Below are positions 44 through 8,565 of a DNA stretch of 8,718 bases, piece after piece. The stretch lies in IMG/VR virus record IMGVR_UViG_2681813271_000005; one strand, 5' to 3'. The position numbers were made by a program, and so were the translations under genes. Numbering within the stretch: the first letter of the stretch is position 1; the number at the start of each line of letters is the position of its first letter. The stretch is from a virus. Its lineage: Duplodnaviria > Heunggongvirae > Uroviricota > Caudoviricetes. A model generated the notes under the pieces. It was not told the origin of the DNA. It was given only the letters and a program-made list of their open reading frames with translations, and did not search any database.

Positions 44-601
44 ATGGCATCCTTTTCAAATCAAATAAAAGTAACGAACTTTCAAATTAAAAGTACTGAA
101 CCGATCTATTCTAATCAAACATGGACAGGTCAACGTATCATGAGAAGTACTGGAATTCAATACTATCAAATTCAGTTCACCCTTAATTTTAATCCTGCAT
201 CACTAAATGAAGTGAATAGCTTTTTAGCTCAATATGCACAGGGCAAACCTTTCACTATGTCATTGGGGCTTGCAGGTACATATTACGGTAAACAGACTGG
301 TGCAGTAACCGCTACTGCTCTCACTAAACCGGGTAATATGGTTGTACCTATCAGTACTAACACATTAGCTGTGGGTGAGTGGGTACAGTTTTCCAATCAC
401 AATAAGCTATATCGAATCGTAGAACGTACCAGTACTTCAATTACTATTTTCCCTGCTCTACAAAATACAGTACAGGCAAGTGAAGCACTCAAATATAACA
501 ATCTCATGATCGAGGCTGTATTAGATCCAGACAATGATTATTCATTGCCTATTGGGAACATCATGAATATTACATTGAAAGCAACGGAGAATATCATCTA
601 A
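44..601 (+). CDS. Minor tail protein, lambda gpM-like N-terminal region with a C-terminal extension of roughly 75 aa
   Basis: ATG at 44 preceded by GAGGT (33-37) at 6-nt spacing. Residues about 40-74 (YYQIQFTLNFNPASLNEVNSFLAQYAQGKPFTMSL) resemble, from memory, the lambda gpM core (TYSVTLSVPREEATVLESFLEEHGGWKSFLW). The stop overlaps the next start (TAATG at 599-603). It is the first gene of an M-L-K-I/J-like series. Confidence 0.6.
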   Translation: MASFSNQIKVTNFQIKSTEPIYSNQTWTGQRIMRSTGIQYYQIQFTLNFNPASLNEVNSFLAQYAQGKPFTMSLGLAGTYYGKQTGAVTATALTKPGNMVVPISTNTLAVGEWVQFSNHNKLYRIVERTSTSITIFPALQNTVQASEALKYNNLMIEAVLDPDNDYSLPIGNIMNITLKATENII

Positions 602-1223
602 TGGACTCAGGTATATATACTAATGCTAATCTTCTTAAGTACTGGAAGTTAGTCAGAGGTACAACCAAGACAAGATTAACACTAATGGAAATTATGAGCT
701 TAGGCGTTAATGTTACTTGTTTTGATGTACTACCAAAAGGTACTAATGGTTTTCACTGGACGGATTCACTAATTGATATAGATCTGGATGGTTATAAGTA
801 CATAAGTTTCCCCGACATTATCAGTGGTTCATTACCTTCATATTCTGAACAAAAGGGCATGTCTAATGATGCTATCAATTTTAAAATTAGCAATGTAAAC
901 GCCTCGGTTCGTGCTCTTGCCCTTGGTGGTTTCTTGAAAGATGCACAGATGAATATCAAGTTAGTAATTCTCAATCCATATGATAGTACTGTAATTGATT
1001 CAATGCTCATGTTTACGGGGTTTATTGACTATGTACAGGCAGTAACTGATCCAAATCAGAAGCAAAACGAAATGACTATATATGTGAATTCTGTCTATAA
1101 GAAATTAGACAGACAACCTGCATTAATTGCCGCCAACTCAGTATATCAATCTTACTATAGAAATGATGAGTACTTTAGTCTGTTAGGTCAAGTTAATCAA
1201 AATCAGAACTGGAAATACAAGTA

Positions 1224-1224
<1 letters not shown>
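601..1224 (+). CDS. Minor tail protein, gpL-like by position and size only
   Basis: 207-aa ORF coupled to its neighbours by TAATG overlaps at both ends. Its position between the gpM-like and gpK/I/J-like genes matches lambda L. I could not find the lambda L C-terminal Cys cluster, so the assignment is positional. Confidence 0.45.
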
Positions 1225-4923
<3,699 letters not shown>

Positions 4924-5080
4924 TAAATAATTCAGGGATTATTAACTGTAACCTCATTTCAAAAGGATACATAAATGAAATCTAATGAACGTACTTTCAA
5001 TAGTACCAGTACTAACCCATTCAGTATTAGCGGAAAAGAAACAATTGGAATGAAGAAAAGGATTTACAGGAGTAAGAGCT

Positions 5081-5377
5081 ATGGCACAGGGATTACAATG
5101 TTGGAATGCAGCGGGTGTATTAGTAGTAGATCTGACTGATTATAACATACGTTTTATGGGTACTTATACTGTCAAGGCTACTTCTGCACAGACCTATACT
5201 GTATCAGTACCAAATATGAAAACTACAGGCTGGTTTGTACACTATGCCCCCGCCAGTGATACCTTTAATGAGTGGTCAGCCTTTTGTAATAATGGGTCAT
5301 TTACTGCGGTTTATTTGCCAACATATGCACCGTTAGCTGGTAACTACACTTTTAACGTATATAAGTGGACGGCGTAA
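5081..5377 (+). CDS. Hypothetical protein; paralog of the next gene at its N-terminus; possible tail-tip accessory protein
   Basis: 98-aa ORF with AGGAG (5068-5072) 8 nt before the ATG. The N-terminus MAQGLQCWNAAGVLVVDLTD aligns with MA-GFEVYNSAGALTIDSTN of the next ORF. It lies immediately downstream of the J-like gene. Confidence 0.55.
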   Translation: MAQGLQCWNAAGVLVVDLTDYNIRFMGTYTVKATSAQTYTVSVPNMKTTGWFVHYAPASDTFNEWSAFCNNGSFTAVYLPTYAPLAGNYTFNVYKWTA

Positions 5378-5378
5378 G

Positions 5379-6035
5379 ATGGCAGGTTTCGAGGTATATA
5401 ATTCAGCGGGTGCACTGACTATAGATAGTACTAACAAGTCGATAATGACGGGTGCAGTAAAGGCCATGGGAAATCTAACTGATACGGGATACTACACAGG
5501 CTTTACCTGTGCCTTCGGTAATGGTGGATCGCTCGGTTTCGTTATGCCATCAGTAGTAGCTAACAGGAACACAACACAGTACTGGTTCCAGATACAGAAA
5601 GACGGGGCATGGTGTTTCCCTGGTGCCTATATGTTCCAGCCTGGCATGGGCAGGTTCATGACAAGTAGTCACACGGCTACCCCCACATCTGGTTTTCTTG
5701 ATGTGTTCAGTGAAGAAGGTACTTTAATCTGGTCTGCTGCATCAGCGGCAACAATGCCACGTATCAGGGGATTTTTGACAGCACCTGCGGCTACCGATCT
5801 CAGTACTGCCATTACGGTAACGTCTCCAGTAGCTGATCCCTGGTTCTGCTGGTCACAATGTCCGGGGAACATATCAGATGATGGTACAGTAATTGGGTAC
5901 TCTGGTCTGGTTATCAGGCGTAATTCCAGTACTTCATTCAGTCTACAGTACGTTTCAAAGAACCAGAAAACCTACCGCCAGGCAATGGGGAATAATGGTA
6001 TCCAGATAGCATTGGCGACATTTACAGGGTATTAA
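5379..6035 (+). CDS. Hypothetical protein; paralog of the previous gene at its N-terminus; Cys-containing; possible receptor-binding or tail accessory protein
   Basis: 218-aa ORF starting 1 nt after the stop of the previous gene. It shares the N-terminal motif G[LF]xx[WY]N[AS]AG[AV]L[TV][VI]D[LS]T[DN] with that gene. Contains four Cys, including FCWSQCPG. Confidence 0.55.
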   Translation: MAGFEVYNSAGALTIDSTNKSIMTGAVKAMGNLTDTGYYTGFTCAFGNGGSLGFVMPSVVANRNTTQYWFQIQKDGAWCFPGAYMFQPGMGRFMTSSHTATPTSGFLDVFSEEGTLIWSAASAATMPRIRGFLTAPAATDLSTAITVTSPVADPWFCWSQCPGNISDDGTVIGYSGLVIRRNSSTSFSLQYVSKNQKTYRQAMGNNGIQIALATFTGY

Positions 6036-6036
6036 T

Positions 6037-6078
6037 ACAATAACAATAACAATAACAATAACAATAACAATAACAACA
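6037..6078. repeat. Hexanucleotide tandem repeat (ACAATA)x6 plus one imperfect unit (ACAACA)
   Basis: Read directly from the sequence: six perfect ACAATA units at 6037-6072 and ACAACA at 6073-6078. It sits between the stop of the 5379-6035 gene and the AAGGGA ribosome-binding site of the 6092 gene. Confidence 0.9.
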
Positions 6079-6091
6079 AAGGGATTTCAGT

Positions 6092-6364
6092 ATGGATATC
6101 GGTGCTATTTTAGCTCTTGTTATTTCTGGATGCGTATTCCTTTATACTATCTTTAGAGATAATACAAAGGATACGAATGATCTATTAACTCGCGTTGCTA
6201 CTCTTGAAACTACCATTGCTGTACTGGAAAGTAGTATTTCCCGTATTGAGGATGATCAGGATAAGATGAGAGATACACTAAGTAAACTGGAAACACAAAT
6301 CCATGAACTTGATGTTAAGATTGAAAGGATTATTGCAATTCTTCAGCAGAAACAACGACCATAA
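6092..6364 (+). CDS. Small membrane-anchored coiled-coil protein (one N-terminal TM helix); candidate lysis regulator, spanin-like or superinfection-exclusion protein
   Basis: 90-aa ORF with AAGGGA (6079-6084) 7 nt upstream. The N-terminus IGAILALVISGCVFLYTIF is a hydrophobic helix of about 20 aa. The rest is charged with heptad-like periodicity (LETTIAVLESSISRIEDDQDKMRDTLSKLETQIHELDVKIERIIAILQ). It ends at the bidirectional terminator and is convergent with the lysozyme gene. Confidence 0.55.
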   Translation: MDIGAILALVISGCVFLYTIFRDNTKDTNDLLTRVATLETTIAVLESSISRIEDDQDKMRDTLSKLETQIHELDVKIERIIAILQQKQRP

Positions 6365-6365
6365 A

Positions 6366-6402
6366 AAAAGGCATAGTATGTCATTCGTACTATGCCTTTT
6401 CT
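6366..6402. terminator. Bidirectional rho-independent terminator
   Basis: Perfect 9-bp stem GGCATAGTA (6370-6378) / TACTATGCC (6388-6396) with a 9-nt loop. An A-run (6363-6369) lies upstream and a T-rich tract (6397-6415) downstream, so it works on both strands. It sits between convergent genes, with the - strand stop codon at 6403-6405. Confidence 0.8.
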
Positions 6403-6852
6403 TTATTTGTTTTTAAGTACTGCAATCATGGAATTCACACGGTTTGGTGTCTGCCTGTACCATAGAGAACACTTAGCCTGTTTAATTGCTTCAAGGTAAT
6501 CATGTGCTTTCAGGGCTGCTAACATCTTACGGAATTTCTTCACCCCGCCAATACCTAACTGGAAGGTCATGATAATAATAAAATCATTCCAGTCATCGGG
6601 AAGATTTAACCCTAATGTCTGTACCTGCATAATTGTTTTGGCTAAATCGCGAGATAGTAACTTGTCTGCTTCGCTTTCAGTAATGCCAGTACTAAAATCT
6701 TCTCCCGCCTGAATTAAGTGACCATATCCAATAGTACTACATCCTAAACTATCAGCATATGGATAGAATTTCCCATTTCTGAAGTACTTCAAATTTGCCT
6801 GATACTCTTTAGTACCTTCATATTCTTTTAATCGTGTTTTTAAATCGCTCAT
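6403..6852 (-). CDS. Endolysin, T4 lysozyme-like (glycoside hydrolase family 24 muramidase)
   Basis: 149-aa ORF. The catalytic signature E12-G ... YAD34SLGCST40IGYGHL matches the T4 lysozyme Glu/Asp/Thr triad and the TIGxGH motif. The C-terminal SLWYRQTPNRVNSMI closely matches T4 lysozyme SRWYNQTPNRAKRVI, and MTFQLGIGGV matches MVFQMGETGV. No N-terminal hydrophobic (SAR) segment. Confidence 0.9.
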   Translation of the reverse strand: MSDLKTRLKEYEGTKEYQANLKYFRNGKFYPYADSLGCSTIGYGHLIQAGEDFSTGITESEADKLLSRDLAKTIMQVQTLGLNLPDDWNDFIIIMTFQLGIGGVKKFRKMLAALKAHDYLEAIKQAKCSLWYRQTPNRVNSMIAVLKNK

Positions 6853-6888: not shown

Positions 6889-7323
6889 ATGATGAGTGAA
6901 TGGAAATACTCGGATGATTGGAGCGAGGAGGAAATGTTATCCGGTGAATATGCTGGTTTCGTTTATATCTTTCAGTTTGAGGATGGTTCTAATTATGTCG
7001 GTGCTAAGCAAATCTATCAGCGGGTTAAGGATGCGAGAAAGCTAAAGCCCACTTCAAAGGAAAATGGCTGGCGTGAGTACCTCAGTAGTTCCAATGTCGT
7101 TAAAAACAAAATTGAAAATGGTGAACAGTACTCAAAAACGATTCTATGGTGCTTCGCAACTATGCGAGAGGTAATGATTGTAGAGGCAATACTGATCCTT
7201 CATCAGATGCTTAAACCGGAATGTTTGAATCTGGCAATGATGAGTAAGATTAGATCACCAAATGCAAAGGATAAAAAAAGACTACTCGGAATAGTACAGG
7301 AACTATTGGAGTACTTGAATTGA
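6889..7323 (+). CDS. GIY-YIG family nuclease, short free-standing catalytic domain (homing-endonuclease-like)
   Basis: 144-aa ORF. AGFVYIFQFEDGSNYVGAKQIYQRVKDAR matches the GIY-(10-11 aa)-YVG motif plus the conserved Arg, as in I-TevI SGIYQIKNTLNNKVYVGSAKDFEKRWKRH. A downstream MREVMIVEAI is consistent with the conserved catalytic Glu helix. There is no long C-terminal DNA-binding domain. Confidence 0.7.
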   Translation: MMSEWKYSDDWSEEEMLSGEYAGFVYIFQFEDGSNYVGAKQIYQRVKDARKLKPTSKENGWREYLSSSNVVKNKIENGEQYSKTILWCFATMREVMIVEAILILHQMLKPECLNLAMMSKIRSPNAKDKKRLLGIVQELLEYLN

Positions 7324-8249: not shown

Positions 8250-8565
8250 NNNNNNNNNNNNNNNNNNNNNNNNNNNNNNNNNNNNNNNNNNNNNNNNNNN
8301 NNNNNNNNNNNNNNNNNNNNNNNNNNNNNNNNNNNNNNNNNNNNNNNNNNNNNNNNNNNNNNNNNNNNNNNNNNNNNNNNNNNNNNNNNNNNNNNNNNNN
8401 NNNNNNNNNNNNNNNNNNNNNNNNNNNNNNNNNNNNNNNNNNNNNNNNNNNNNNNNNNNNNNNNNNNNNNNNNNNNNNNNNNNNNNNNNNNNNNNNNNNN
8501 NNNNNNNNNNNNNNNNNNNNNNNNNNNNNNNNNNNNNNNNNNNNNNNNNNNNNNNNNNNNNNNNN
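8250..8565. other. Assembly gap (run of N)
   Basis: 316 consecutive N characters read directly from the sequence. Its true length and content are unknown. Confidence 0.99.

Follow-up and report, generated by a model that had tools for sequence, protein, structure and literature searches.

Why should two adjacent phage genes of different length, placed directly behind a tail-tip gene, begin with alignable stretches of about twenty residues and then diverge? This question is raised by a stretch of 8,718 nucleotides (nt) of tailed-phage DNA (Caudoviricetes; IMG/VR record IMGVR_UViG_2681813271_000005), the whole of which is called the window below. In it, open reading frames (ORFs) of 98 and 218 amino acids (aa) follow the gene of a J-like central tail fibre protein. 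A preliminary description of the DNA had regarded the two as tandem paralogues of an unrecognised family, with a common N-terminal module on interchangeable bodies, at the place where lambda carries lom, stf and tfa. The analysis presented here confirms the shared N-terminal module and shows that the locus is a divergent prophage copy of an already catalogued kind of receptor-binding protein (RBP) cassette. The explanation that is favoured, with somewhat more confidence than doubt, is that the two ORFs form the terminal host-recognition cassette, consisting of an RBP and a small tip subunit, of a lambda/T1-type siphovirus prophage of Shigella sonnei and Escherichia coli. The features on which this argument turns are the following.

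1621-4923, plus strand: J-like central tail fibre/tail-tip protein of 1100 aa, assigned from Pfam, PHROG and PDB matches
4711-4920, plus strand: last 70 residues of J, ending ...LRVRMGLW, the putative docking platform
4924-5080, plus strand: spacer of 157 nt between J and the cassette, with no terminator and no significant RNA fold
5081-5377, plus strand: gene of the 98-aa putative small tip protein (phrog_7961 family), with AGGAG 9 nt 5' of its ATG
5090-5140, plus strand: N-terminal hairpin of the 98-aa protein, residues 4-20, GLQCWNAAGVLVVDLTD
5379-6035, plus strand: gene of the 218-aa DUF8377 protein (PF28254, phrog_4524), the predicted receptor-binding protein
5385-5435, plus strand: N-terminal hairpin of the 218-aa protein, residues 3-19, GFEVYNSAGALTIDSTN
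5688-5735, plus strand: second occurrence of the hairpin pattern, inside the 218-aa protein (residues 104-119), SGFLDVFSEEGTLIWS

A hairpin shared by two neighbouring proteins

Both ORFs were found behind the tail-tip gene as had been described, at 5081-5377 and 5379-6035 on the plus strand, 157 nt 3' of J. No gene or terminator separates J (1621-4923) from the cassette (5081-6035), the stop codon of the 98-aa gene and the ATG of the 218-aa gene are 1 nt apart, and the sole terminator-like site within 4800-6500 is that at 6366-6400. The pair belongs to the late tail operon, which has the AGGAG sequence before the first of the two ORFs and no terminator until 6366-6400; the two genes would be transcribed together with J and would be translationally coupled to one another.

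The N-terminal hairpins of both proteins fit the pattern G-(L/F)-(Q/E)-x-(W/Y)-N-x-x-G-x-L-x-(V/I)-D, and the N-terminal sequences quoted earlier proved to be correct. The 9-mer CAGCGGGTG occurs only twice in the whole window, at 5109 and 5404, and the codon positions of its two copies coincide in the alignment, which bears out the shared DNA that had been noticed there; in all, 35 of the 57 aligned nt of the two N-termini are identical. Whole-length BLASTP of the 98-aa against the 218-aa protein gave a nonsignificant E value of 5.4, which is the wrong test for a module of 20 residues. Global alignment of the first 20 with the first 19 residues, using BLOSUM62, gave a score of 41 against a mean of 6.8 (standard deviation 3.9) for shuffled sequences. 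Only 1 of 20,000 shuffled pairs reached 41, and none of 2,313 real 19-mers taken from other proteins of the window scored above 23.

Family profiles made from 54 relatives of the 98-aa protein and 35 relatives of the 218-aa protein led to the same result. When the two were compared with hhalign, only the extreme N-termini aligned, over 17-20 columns (probability 84.8 %, E 6.5e-6, score 38.9), while 300 column shuffles gave a mean score of 13.1 (standard deviation 2.6) and a maximum of 22.5. With the N-termini removed, the E value was 0.36, and the bodies have no detectable sequence similarity past approximately 20 residues. The N-terminal similarity of the two proteins is far beyond chance, in the shuffled-sequence control as well as in pairwise and profile alignment, and the divergence that had been seen to follow it is equally clear. 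The word paralogous holds for these 20 or so residues; for the genes as a whole it was an overstatement. That both bodies descend from a common beta-sandwich is no more than plausible, from their fold matches described below.

The hairpin is well conserved on either side of the pair. In the 98-aa protein G4, Q6, W8, G12, and D20 are invariant in the 54 relatives; in the 218-aa protein G3, F4, and N8 are invariant and G11, L13, and D16 are conserved in at least 90 % of the 35 relatives. AlphaFold2 places strands at residues 6-8 and 14-17 of the former and at 5-7 and 13-16 of the latter. The pLDDT (predicted local distance difference test) values of these segments, 73-80 and 67-73, respectively, are lower than those of the bodies, as would be expected for interface elements in models of the monomers. 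The pattern occurs a second time inside the 218-aa protein, where residues 104-119 constitute the most conserved block of DUF8377: S104, G105, G114, and W118 are invariant and L107, D108, V109, and L116 are nearly so. The model has strands at 108-110 and 116-119, in a register equal to that of the N-terminal hairpin. Alignment of the internal with the N-terminal motif is marginal (E 0.003-0.012) and its scores, 18-22, lie inside the shuffle range. A 17-column hidden Markov model (HMM) of the motif, derived from the two families of the window only, was run over eight other loci, translated in six frames to 100,736 residues. Its top five matches were all in proteins of cassettes behind J, either N-terminal or near residue 110. 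The model was too family-specific to give a consistent count of three hairpins per cassette.

Relatives of the pair and the conserved end of J

The larger protein does belong to a named family. PF28254 (DUF8377) is the precomputed listing for the exact 218-aa protein and for all 77 homologues, and phrog_4524 matches it over its full length (1.6e-54); scans of NCBIfam and of a Pfam copy older than PF28254 gave no significant family for either the 98-aa or the 218-aa protein. Its AlphaFold2 model is confident and all-beta (pLDDT 86.1; predicted template modelling score 0.79), and the only strong structural match of this model in the PDB is a validated phage RBP, the LptD-binding protein of Oekolampad. 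Judged from the model, the 218-aa protein appears to have the same fold as this DUF6453 protein, which is described as two lectin-like sandwiches and which is also matched by the model of the 98-aa protein. In sequence, the 218-aa protein did not match Pfam DUF6453 (PF20051) at E<=10, a profile to which Rogue1 gp39 scores 461.8 bits, and profile-profile comparison of DUF8377 with DUF6453 by hhalign was not significant (E 0.045). Foldseek searches of BFVD retrieved uncharacterised proteins of 218-286 aa from Acinetobacter and Pseudomonas phages and the protein encoded after pb4 in the T5-like phage My1. A bulb-type (B_lectin) beta-prism lectin was also considered, and the protein was found not to belong to PF01453/beta-prism II. 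The profiles of both families, and also the FhuA-type proteins discussed below, were searched against PDB sequences; nothing meaningful was found, and matches to antibody heavy chains (E 0.004-1) were discarded as chance.

The 98-aa protein matches phrog_7961 (9.1e-16) and phrog_2427 (1.2e-9), and its first 55 or so residues also match the N-terminus of the 230-aa family phrog_4062; cross-matches in PHROG connect the small families 7961, 2427, and 557. Its AlphaFold2 model, confident and all-beta (pLDDT 88.4), suggests a single lectin-like beta-sandwich. Searched with the small-family profile, a set of 1.84 billion representative proteins gave 341 clusters, nearly all of 86-108 aa. The protein can be assigned to a small superfamily (phrog_7961/2427/557) defined by a length of about 100 aa, an N-terminal G-L-Q-x-W-[DN]-x-x-G hairpin, and a position directly after a J-type C-terminus. 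Five distant representatives of the small family were picked at random, of which four came with upstream context. All four had a J-type C-terminus upstream and a hairpin-first protein of 200-244 aa downstream; two of these large partners are DUF8377 proteins and two are without a Pfam family. Consistently, the small protein precedes a protein of 200-245 aa with the same hairpin start and a variable body.

Megablast with the DNA of the locus was negative against 50,697 phage records and against 5,426 complete E. coli genomes. The exact protein is present in many S. sonnei and E. coli assemblies, in a prophage adjoining mipA-yeaE-yeaD-gapA-msrB. In S. sonnei 53G (HE616528) and in CP179990, insertion sequence (IS) elements interrupt the J gene of this prophage, with the 98-aa and 218-aa genes left identical and undamaged; part of the Shigella population carries the prophage in decay. 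Using tblastn, both proteins were found adjacent to each other and next to J in the lambdoid phage HK639 (gp24, gp25) and in IsaakIselin/Bas10, NBD2, Henu7, and IME347 of the Drexlerviridae, as well as in many Klebsiella phages and in Cronobacter SG01 and ENT39118. The label "tail fiber protein" on some of these matches (CS01, SG01, ENT39118) reflects overlap with the end of the annotated J, the small ORF being unannotated. Identity of the pair to its HK639 and IsaakIselin counterparts is 33-45 % and to those of NBD2 33-37 %.

Of 80 IMG/VR loci retrieved by means of the small protein, 78 are arranged as J (ending ...LRVRMGL[WF]), small gene, and DUF8377 gene, and the remaining 2 look degenerate. 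Within the DUF8377 family the genes are thus a fixed pair, whose bodies are not independently interchangeable. What survives of the earlier proposal is its core, a tail-tip accessory protein or RBP in which variable bodies carry a conserved N-terminal module: the fold matches an RBP, and the hairpin heads unrelated bodies of 200-245 aa in other phages. In Stenotrophomonas phage Yut1, Achromobacter phage ART, and a Ralstonia phage, a J with the same C-terminal sequence is followed by a protein of about 100 aa starting with MAQGIQAWDGAG, MPAGLQTWDQYG, or MVVGLEIYNAAG and then by one of 212-233 aa. The latter proteins belong to phrog_4062 or 6061 and are hairpin-first (MPYFETRNANN..., MPAGLYIRNANS...).

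Loci of the FhuA type (HK022, Sd1, SaltyDalty) contain a phrog_557 protein of about 100 aa that begins with MAYGIQTWDASGK, also matches phrog_2427, and is weakly yet detectably similar to the small family of the window (15.9 bits). In their protein of about 210 aa (phrog_425), the hairpin pattern is internal (WGMAIWDSSGKLVL). The PHROG labels "outer membrane protein" for phrog_557 and "membrane associated protein" for phrog_425 stand on families with no obvious signal peptide or membrane segment that share the hairpin architecture; they look like misnomers propagating into genome annotations. A further variant is P0307, a protein of 313 aa encoded at 5001-5942 of a phage-like metagenome contig, immediately behind a protein of 307 aa that ends in a J-type C-terminus (...NNVIKVYDSGGTLRVKIGDLSA). 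It has the small-family unit at residues 1-94 and again at 204-242 and, to judge from its sequence, represents a natural fusion of small and large partners.

The J protein itself matches Phage_Tail_Tip (4.8e-20), Phage-tail_3, and fn3 in Pfam, "central tail fiber J" in PHROG (1.6e-61), and, among PDB sequences, T1 gp33 (9l9p), the SU10 needle (7z4b), and a J-like gp24 (23gd). Its last 70 residues are the best-conserved part, with identities of 73 % to NBD2, 63 % to HK639, 58 % to IsaakIselin, and 51 % to Sd1, whereas the rest of J is 11-33 % identical to these four. The top tblastn matches obtained with the J C-terminus were mostly phages that carry the same cassette. The C-terminal domain is also 51 % identical over 109 aa to the pb4 C-terminus of the T5-like Pectobacterium phage My1, in which the gene after pb4 encodes a hairpin-first protein of 314 aa with a weak DUF6453 match. 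J C-terminus, small protein, and hairpin-first large protein are co-conserved across distant phages.

The terminal domain of J matches the SU10 tail needle (7z4b), an F2-pyocin fibre (25vf), and T1 gp33 (9l9p), and is common to siphovirus, podovirus, and tailocin tips; in the SU10 needle the homologous domain is a beta-prism. The end of J was examined as a possible further copy of the hairpin (hhalign E 0.0027 with the small family and 8.5e-4 with DUF8377). As 9 of 150 and 4 of 150 column shuffles, respectively, or 3-6 %, reach these scores, the resemblance is not significant and is kept as a lead.

A proposed role in host recognition and its rivals

The results described above are best explained by the following mechanism. 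The DUF8377 protein would be a soluble, all-beta RBP that sits as a monomer on the tip of the trimeric J fibre, the 98-aa protein would accompany it as a small tip subunit or adaptor, and the N-terminal hairpins would dock both onto the conserved last 70 or so residues of J (...LRVRMGLW).

Loci of this kind have been studied before. Maffei et al. (2021) described, for T1-like and lambdoid siphophages, a "bona fide RBP locus" downstream of gpJ of which the allelic type tracks the terminal receptor, and reported that IsaakIselin targets and depends on YncD (PMC8594841). According to a preprint, four "unrelated" families in this hypervariable locus go with FhuA, BtuB, LptD, or YncD; one or two accessory proteins often accompany them, and the C-terminal tip of GpJ co-varies (bioRxiv 10.64898/2026.04.02.716166). 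The YncD-associated family is delimited there by an identity to the family RBP of more than 30 %, at a coverage above 99 %. The 218-aa protein is 35.6-37 % identical to its IsaakIselin and NBD2 homologues and 41.9 % to HK639 gp25, in all cases over 100 % of the query, and so exceeds both values, if the DUF8377 protein is the one chosen in the preprint as the RBP. It is also encoded immediately next to the gpJ homologue. A three-gene arrangement with a secreted third protein, as with bas10_0024 and NBD2_48, does not occur here; HK639 lacks the third gene, too. The receptor is probably an outer-membrane barrel. The locus type has already been linked to YncD by correlation, and YncD is taken as the lead candidate because the nearest characterised relatives depend on it. 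Among the receptor types, LptD alone has been validated structurally (PMC12685063).

Several points weigh against this explanation. The link of the locus type to YncD is correlative, and an identity of 33-37 % does not transfer receptor specificity. The cassette may be nonfunctional in the Shigella genomes with an IS-broken J. The distal part of J was not resolved even in the cryo-electron microscopy structure of T1 (PMC11945409), and one paper reads the FhuA-type counterparts as possibly tied to superinfection exclusion (PMC13164509). Virion proteomics for NBD2 were not found in the literature searched. What we say of virion membership, of the receptor and the protein that binds it, and of docking by the hairpins is inferred from the comparisons given above. 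Finally, the hairpin pattern also occurs internally, at residues 104-119 and in FhuA-type and LptD-type proteins, and a structural repeat fits this as well as a docking peptide does.

The last point leads to the main rival, which is not exclusive with docking and which we regard as possible rather than probable: the shared N-terminus could be the first beta-hairpin of a repeated beta-sandwich unit, a case of domain-level paralogy with no attachment role. The 98-aa protein would then have one unit, the 218-aa protein two, and proteins of 313-320 aa three, and a role at the tip or as RBP may remain. This is in keeping with the internal copy being the most conserved block of DUF8377, with the equal register of the two modelled hairpins (5-7/13-16 and 108-110/116-119), with the internal copies in the large proteins of HK022 and Sd1 and in the LptD RBP, with the two small-family units of P0307, and with the match of both models to the two sandwiches of the Oekolampad RBP. 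It is weakened by the marginal alignment of N-terminal and internal motifs, with scores within the shuffle range, and by the lack of sequence similarity between the bodies. Moreover, the N-terminal copies are far better conserved across families than everything else, and they co-occur with the conserved C-terminus of J.

The same internal copies invite a wider and rather doubtful speculation, in which the hairpin is a docking code of universal use. One hairpin of the small protein and two of the large one, its N-terminal and internal copies with their equal strand register in the model, would plug as equivalents onto the three chains of a trimeric, J-type beta-prism tip, so that threefold symmetry is converted to a single asymmetric RBP; single chains of 313-320 aa (P0307, the DUF6453 LptD RBPs, and the 314-aa protein of My1) would carry all three. 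If this were true, the four "unrelated" RBP families for FhuA, BtuB, LptD, and YncD, along with the relatives of these families from Ralstonia, Stenotrophomonas, Achromobacter, and T5-like phages, would have one origin and one attachment mechanism. The free movement of cassettes between phages would be explained, and a rule for engineering receptor swaps would follow.

Host recognition by the pair can also be set against two roles outside the finished tip, both of them less likely. Dedicated chaperone genes commonly precede or follow fibre or RBP genes. The tight translational coupling, the invariant adjacency, and the small size of the 98-aa protein would suit an assembly chaperone of the 218-aa RBP, with a role like that of lambda Tfa or T4 gp38/gp57, absent from the virion and using the hairpin for transient pairing. 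We consider this improbable: the 98-aa gene lies upstream, not downstream, of its supposed client, its product is predicted to have a stable lectin-like sandwich fold resembling virion RBP domains and has no similarity to the Tfa or gp38 families in Pfam or PHROG, and the natural fusion of a small unit to a large body suggests permanent association.

It is very improbable that both proteins are moron or superinfection-exclusion factors of the host envelope and not parts of the virion, although PHROG annotates phrog_557 and phrog_425 in that sense, such a role has been proposed for the cor-adjacent genes of T1-like phages (PMC13164509), and exclusion genes are indeed part of such loci (Cor, Rtp45, and, with its signal peptide, the third gene of Bas10 and NBD2). 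Neither the 98-aa nor the 218-aa protein has a signal peptide, transmembrane segment, lipobox, or positive n-region. Their Kyte-Doolittle hydropathy maxima, KD(19), of 0.92 and 1.16 stay well below the 2.42 reached by the 90-aa protein next to them, and both lack the lipobox and the hydrophobic N-terminus of exclusion lipoproteins of the Cor/Llp/Rtp45 type. In addition, the fold matches a virion RBP, the pair is transcribed as the end of the late tail operon, and the locus type tracks the receptor use of the phage itself. A chance match of unrelated ORFs, which the whole-length BLASTP value might suggest, is refuted by the shuffle controls (1 in 20,000; hhalign score 38.9 against a maximum of 22.5) and by the conservation of the motif in both families across distant phages, and can be dismissed.

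Host recognition by an RBP and its small partner is therefore retained as the preferred explanation. To our knowledge, three points are absent from the literature searched: that DUF8377 is linked by its fold to the LptD RBP, that a superfamily of partners of about 100 aa is conserved across cassette types, and that one hairpin heads both partners. Together, these three make the docking question directly testable, in a class (T1-like/lambdoid) in which the tail-proximal part of the only solved RBP is disordered. If the hairpin is the docking element, it would give a means to predict receptor specificity and to engineer it through the exchange of cassettes; otherwise the locus remains an ordinary, catalogued RBP cassette.

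The rest of the window and comparison with known systems

Around J and the cassette, the window contains the following features.

44-601, plus strand: distal tail protein, T5 pb9-like, in the siphovirus tail gene run
601-1224, plus strand: tail protein
1224-1628, plus strand: DUF6950 protein
4975-5139: 54-aa ORF in the spacer, in another frame than the 98-aa gene and covering its start; called as a gene in some assemblies
6037-6076: hexanucleotide variable number tandem repeat (VNTR), (ACAATA)x6.7, between the 218-aa gene and the next gene
6092-6364, plus strand: 90-aa membrane-anchored coiled-coil protein, last gene of the operon
6366-6400: terminator-like stem-loop with a 15-bp stem, closing the J/98/218/90 unit and also serving the convergent lysozyme gene
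6403-6852, minus strand: phage lysozyme gene
6889-7323: SegE-like GIY-YIG homing endonuclease gene, just 3' of the tail operon
8250-8565: run of N (assembly gap) inside the last ORF of the window

Since the run of N sits inside it, translation of the last ORF is not meaningful. The spacer between J and the cassette had no Rfam match and an RNA fold z-score of 0.27, so that a regulatory RNA is not supported. The 54-aa ORF at 4975-5139 is probably spurious, because the length of the spacer varies from 0 to 242 nt among relatives. The GC content of the 218-aa gene is 47.3 % and that of the 98-aa gene 40.7 %; every gene of the window except the 218-aa gene lies at 31-41 %. The contrast shown by the 218-aa gene hints at acquisition of the cassette from a phage of higher GC content.

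The ACAATA repeat (Tandem Repeats Finder score 80, 100 % matches) has the stop codon of the 218-aa gene on one side and the ribosome-binding site of the next gene on the other. The number of units differs (2, 5, 6, 7, or 10) between otherwise identical loci in other Shigella and E. coli assemblies, which makes the repeat a true VNTR, and it might modulate expression of the downstream 90-aa gene. The product of the latter has an N-terminal transmembrane helix, with the KD(19) maximum at residues 3-21, and a coiled coil. It matches DUF2730 weakly, as well as Rz-like and coiled-coil families of PHROG, also weakly. Its identity to the third cassette gene of NBD2 (NBD2_48) is 19 %, and it lacks a cleavable signal peptide. 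The gene occupies the slot of the exclusion protein in related cassettes, yet is unrelated to those; a function as exclusion or lysis accessory is possible.

Compared with known systems, the likeness to the lom/stf/tfa region of lambda, drawn in the preliminary description, holds for the position downstream of J and for nothing else. No match to the Lom, Stf, and Tfa (tail-fibre, assembly, Ail/Lom) families was found in Pfam, PHROG, or NCBIfam, and in lambda J itself binds the receptor. T5 shares the functional logic proposed for the window: pb5 is a monomeric RBP held non-covalently on the end of a trimeric central fibre, the pb4 tip. However, pb5 has no relationship in sequence, its gene lies elsewhere in the T5 genome, and no fold match with it was seen.

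The FhuA-type cor cassette of T1, HK022, N15, and phi80 consists of a phrog_557 protein of about 100 aa, a phrog_425 protein of about 212-227 aa, and Cor, in the same order after J as in the window. Its large protein has no detectable similarity to DUF8377, the Cor lipoprotein is present, and the function of the upstream two proteins is disputed. The LptD RBP of Oekolampad/Rtp44 (DUF6453, PDB 9RPT; PMC12685063) has the fold in common with the 218-aa model without a relationship at the level of sequence; it is a single chain of 310-320 aa with no separate small partner and with a lipoprotein exclusion factor alongside.

The YncD-type loci of IsaakIselin/Bas10 (bas10_0026-0024), NBD2 (gp50-48), and HK639 (gp24-25) resemble the window most fully. 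They have a protein of about 100 aa and a DUF8377 protein of about 215 aa by J, with 33-45 % identity over the full length, and the C-terminal domain of their J is conserved with that of the window. The third gene of Bas10 and NBD2, with its signal peptide, is absent from the window, which has the membrane-anchored 90-aa coiled-coil protein instead. Unlike the loci of Bas10, NBD2, and HK639, the element that carries the window is a prophage of low GC content whose distal tail protein has T5-like features. In the Tempevirinae and Vilniusvirus the pair is convergent with J, whereas in the window, as in HK639, it is co-directional with J.

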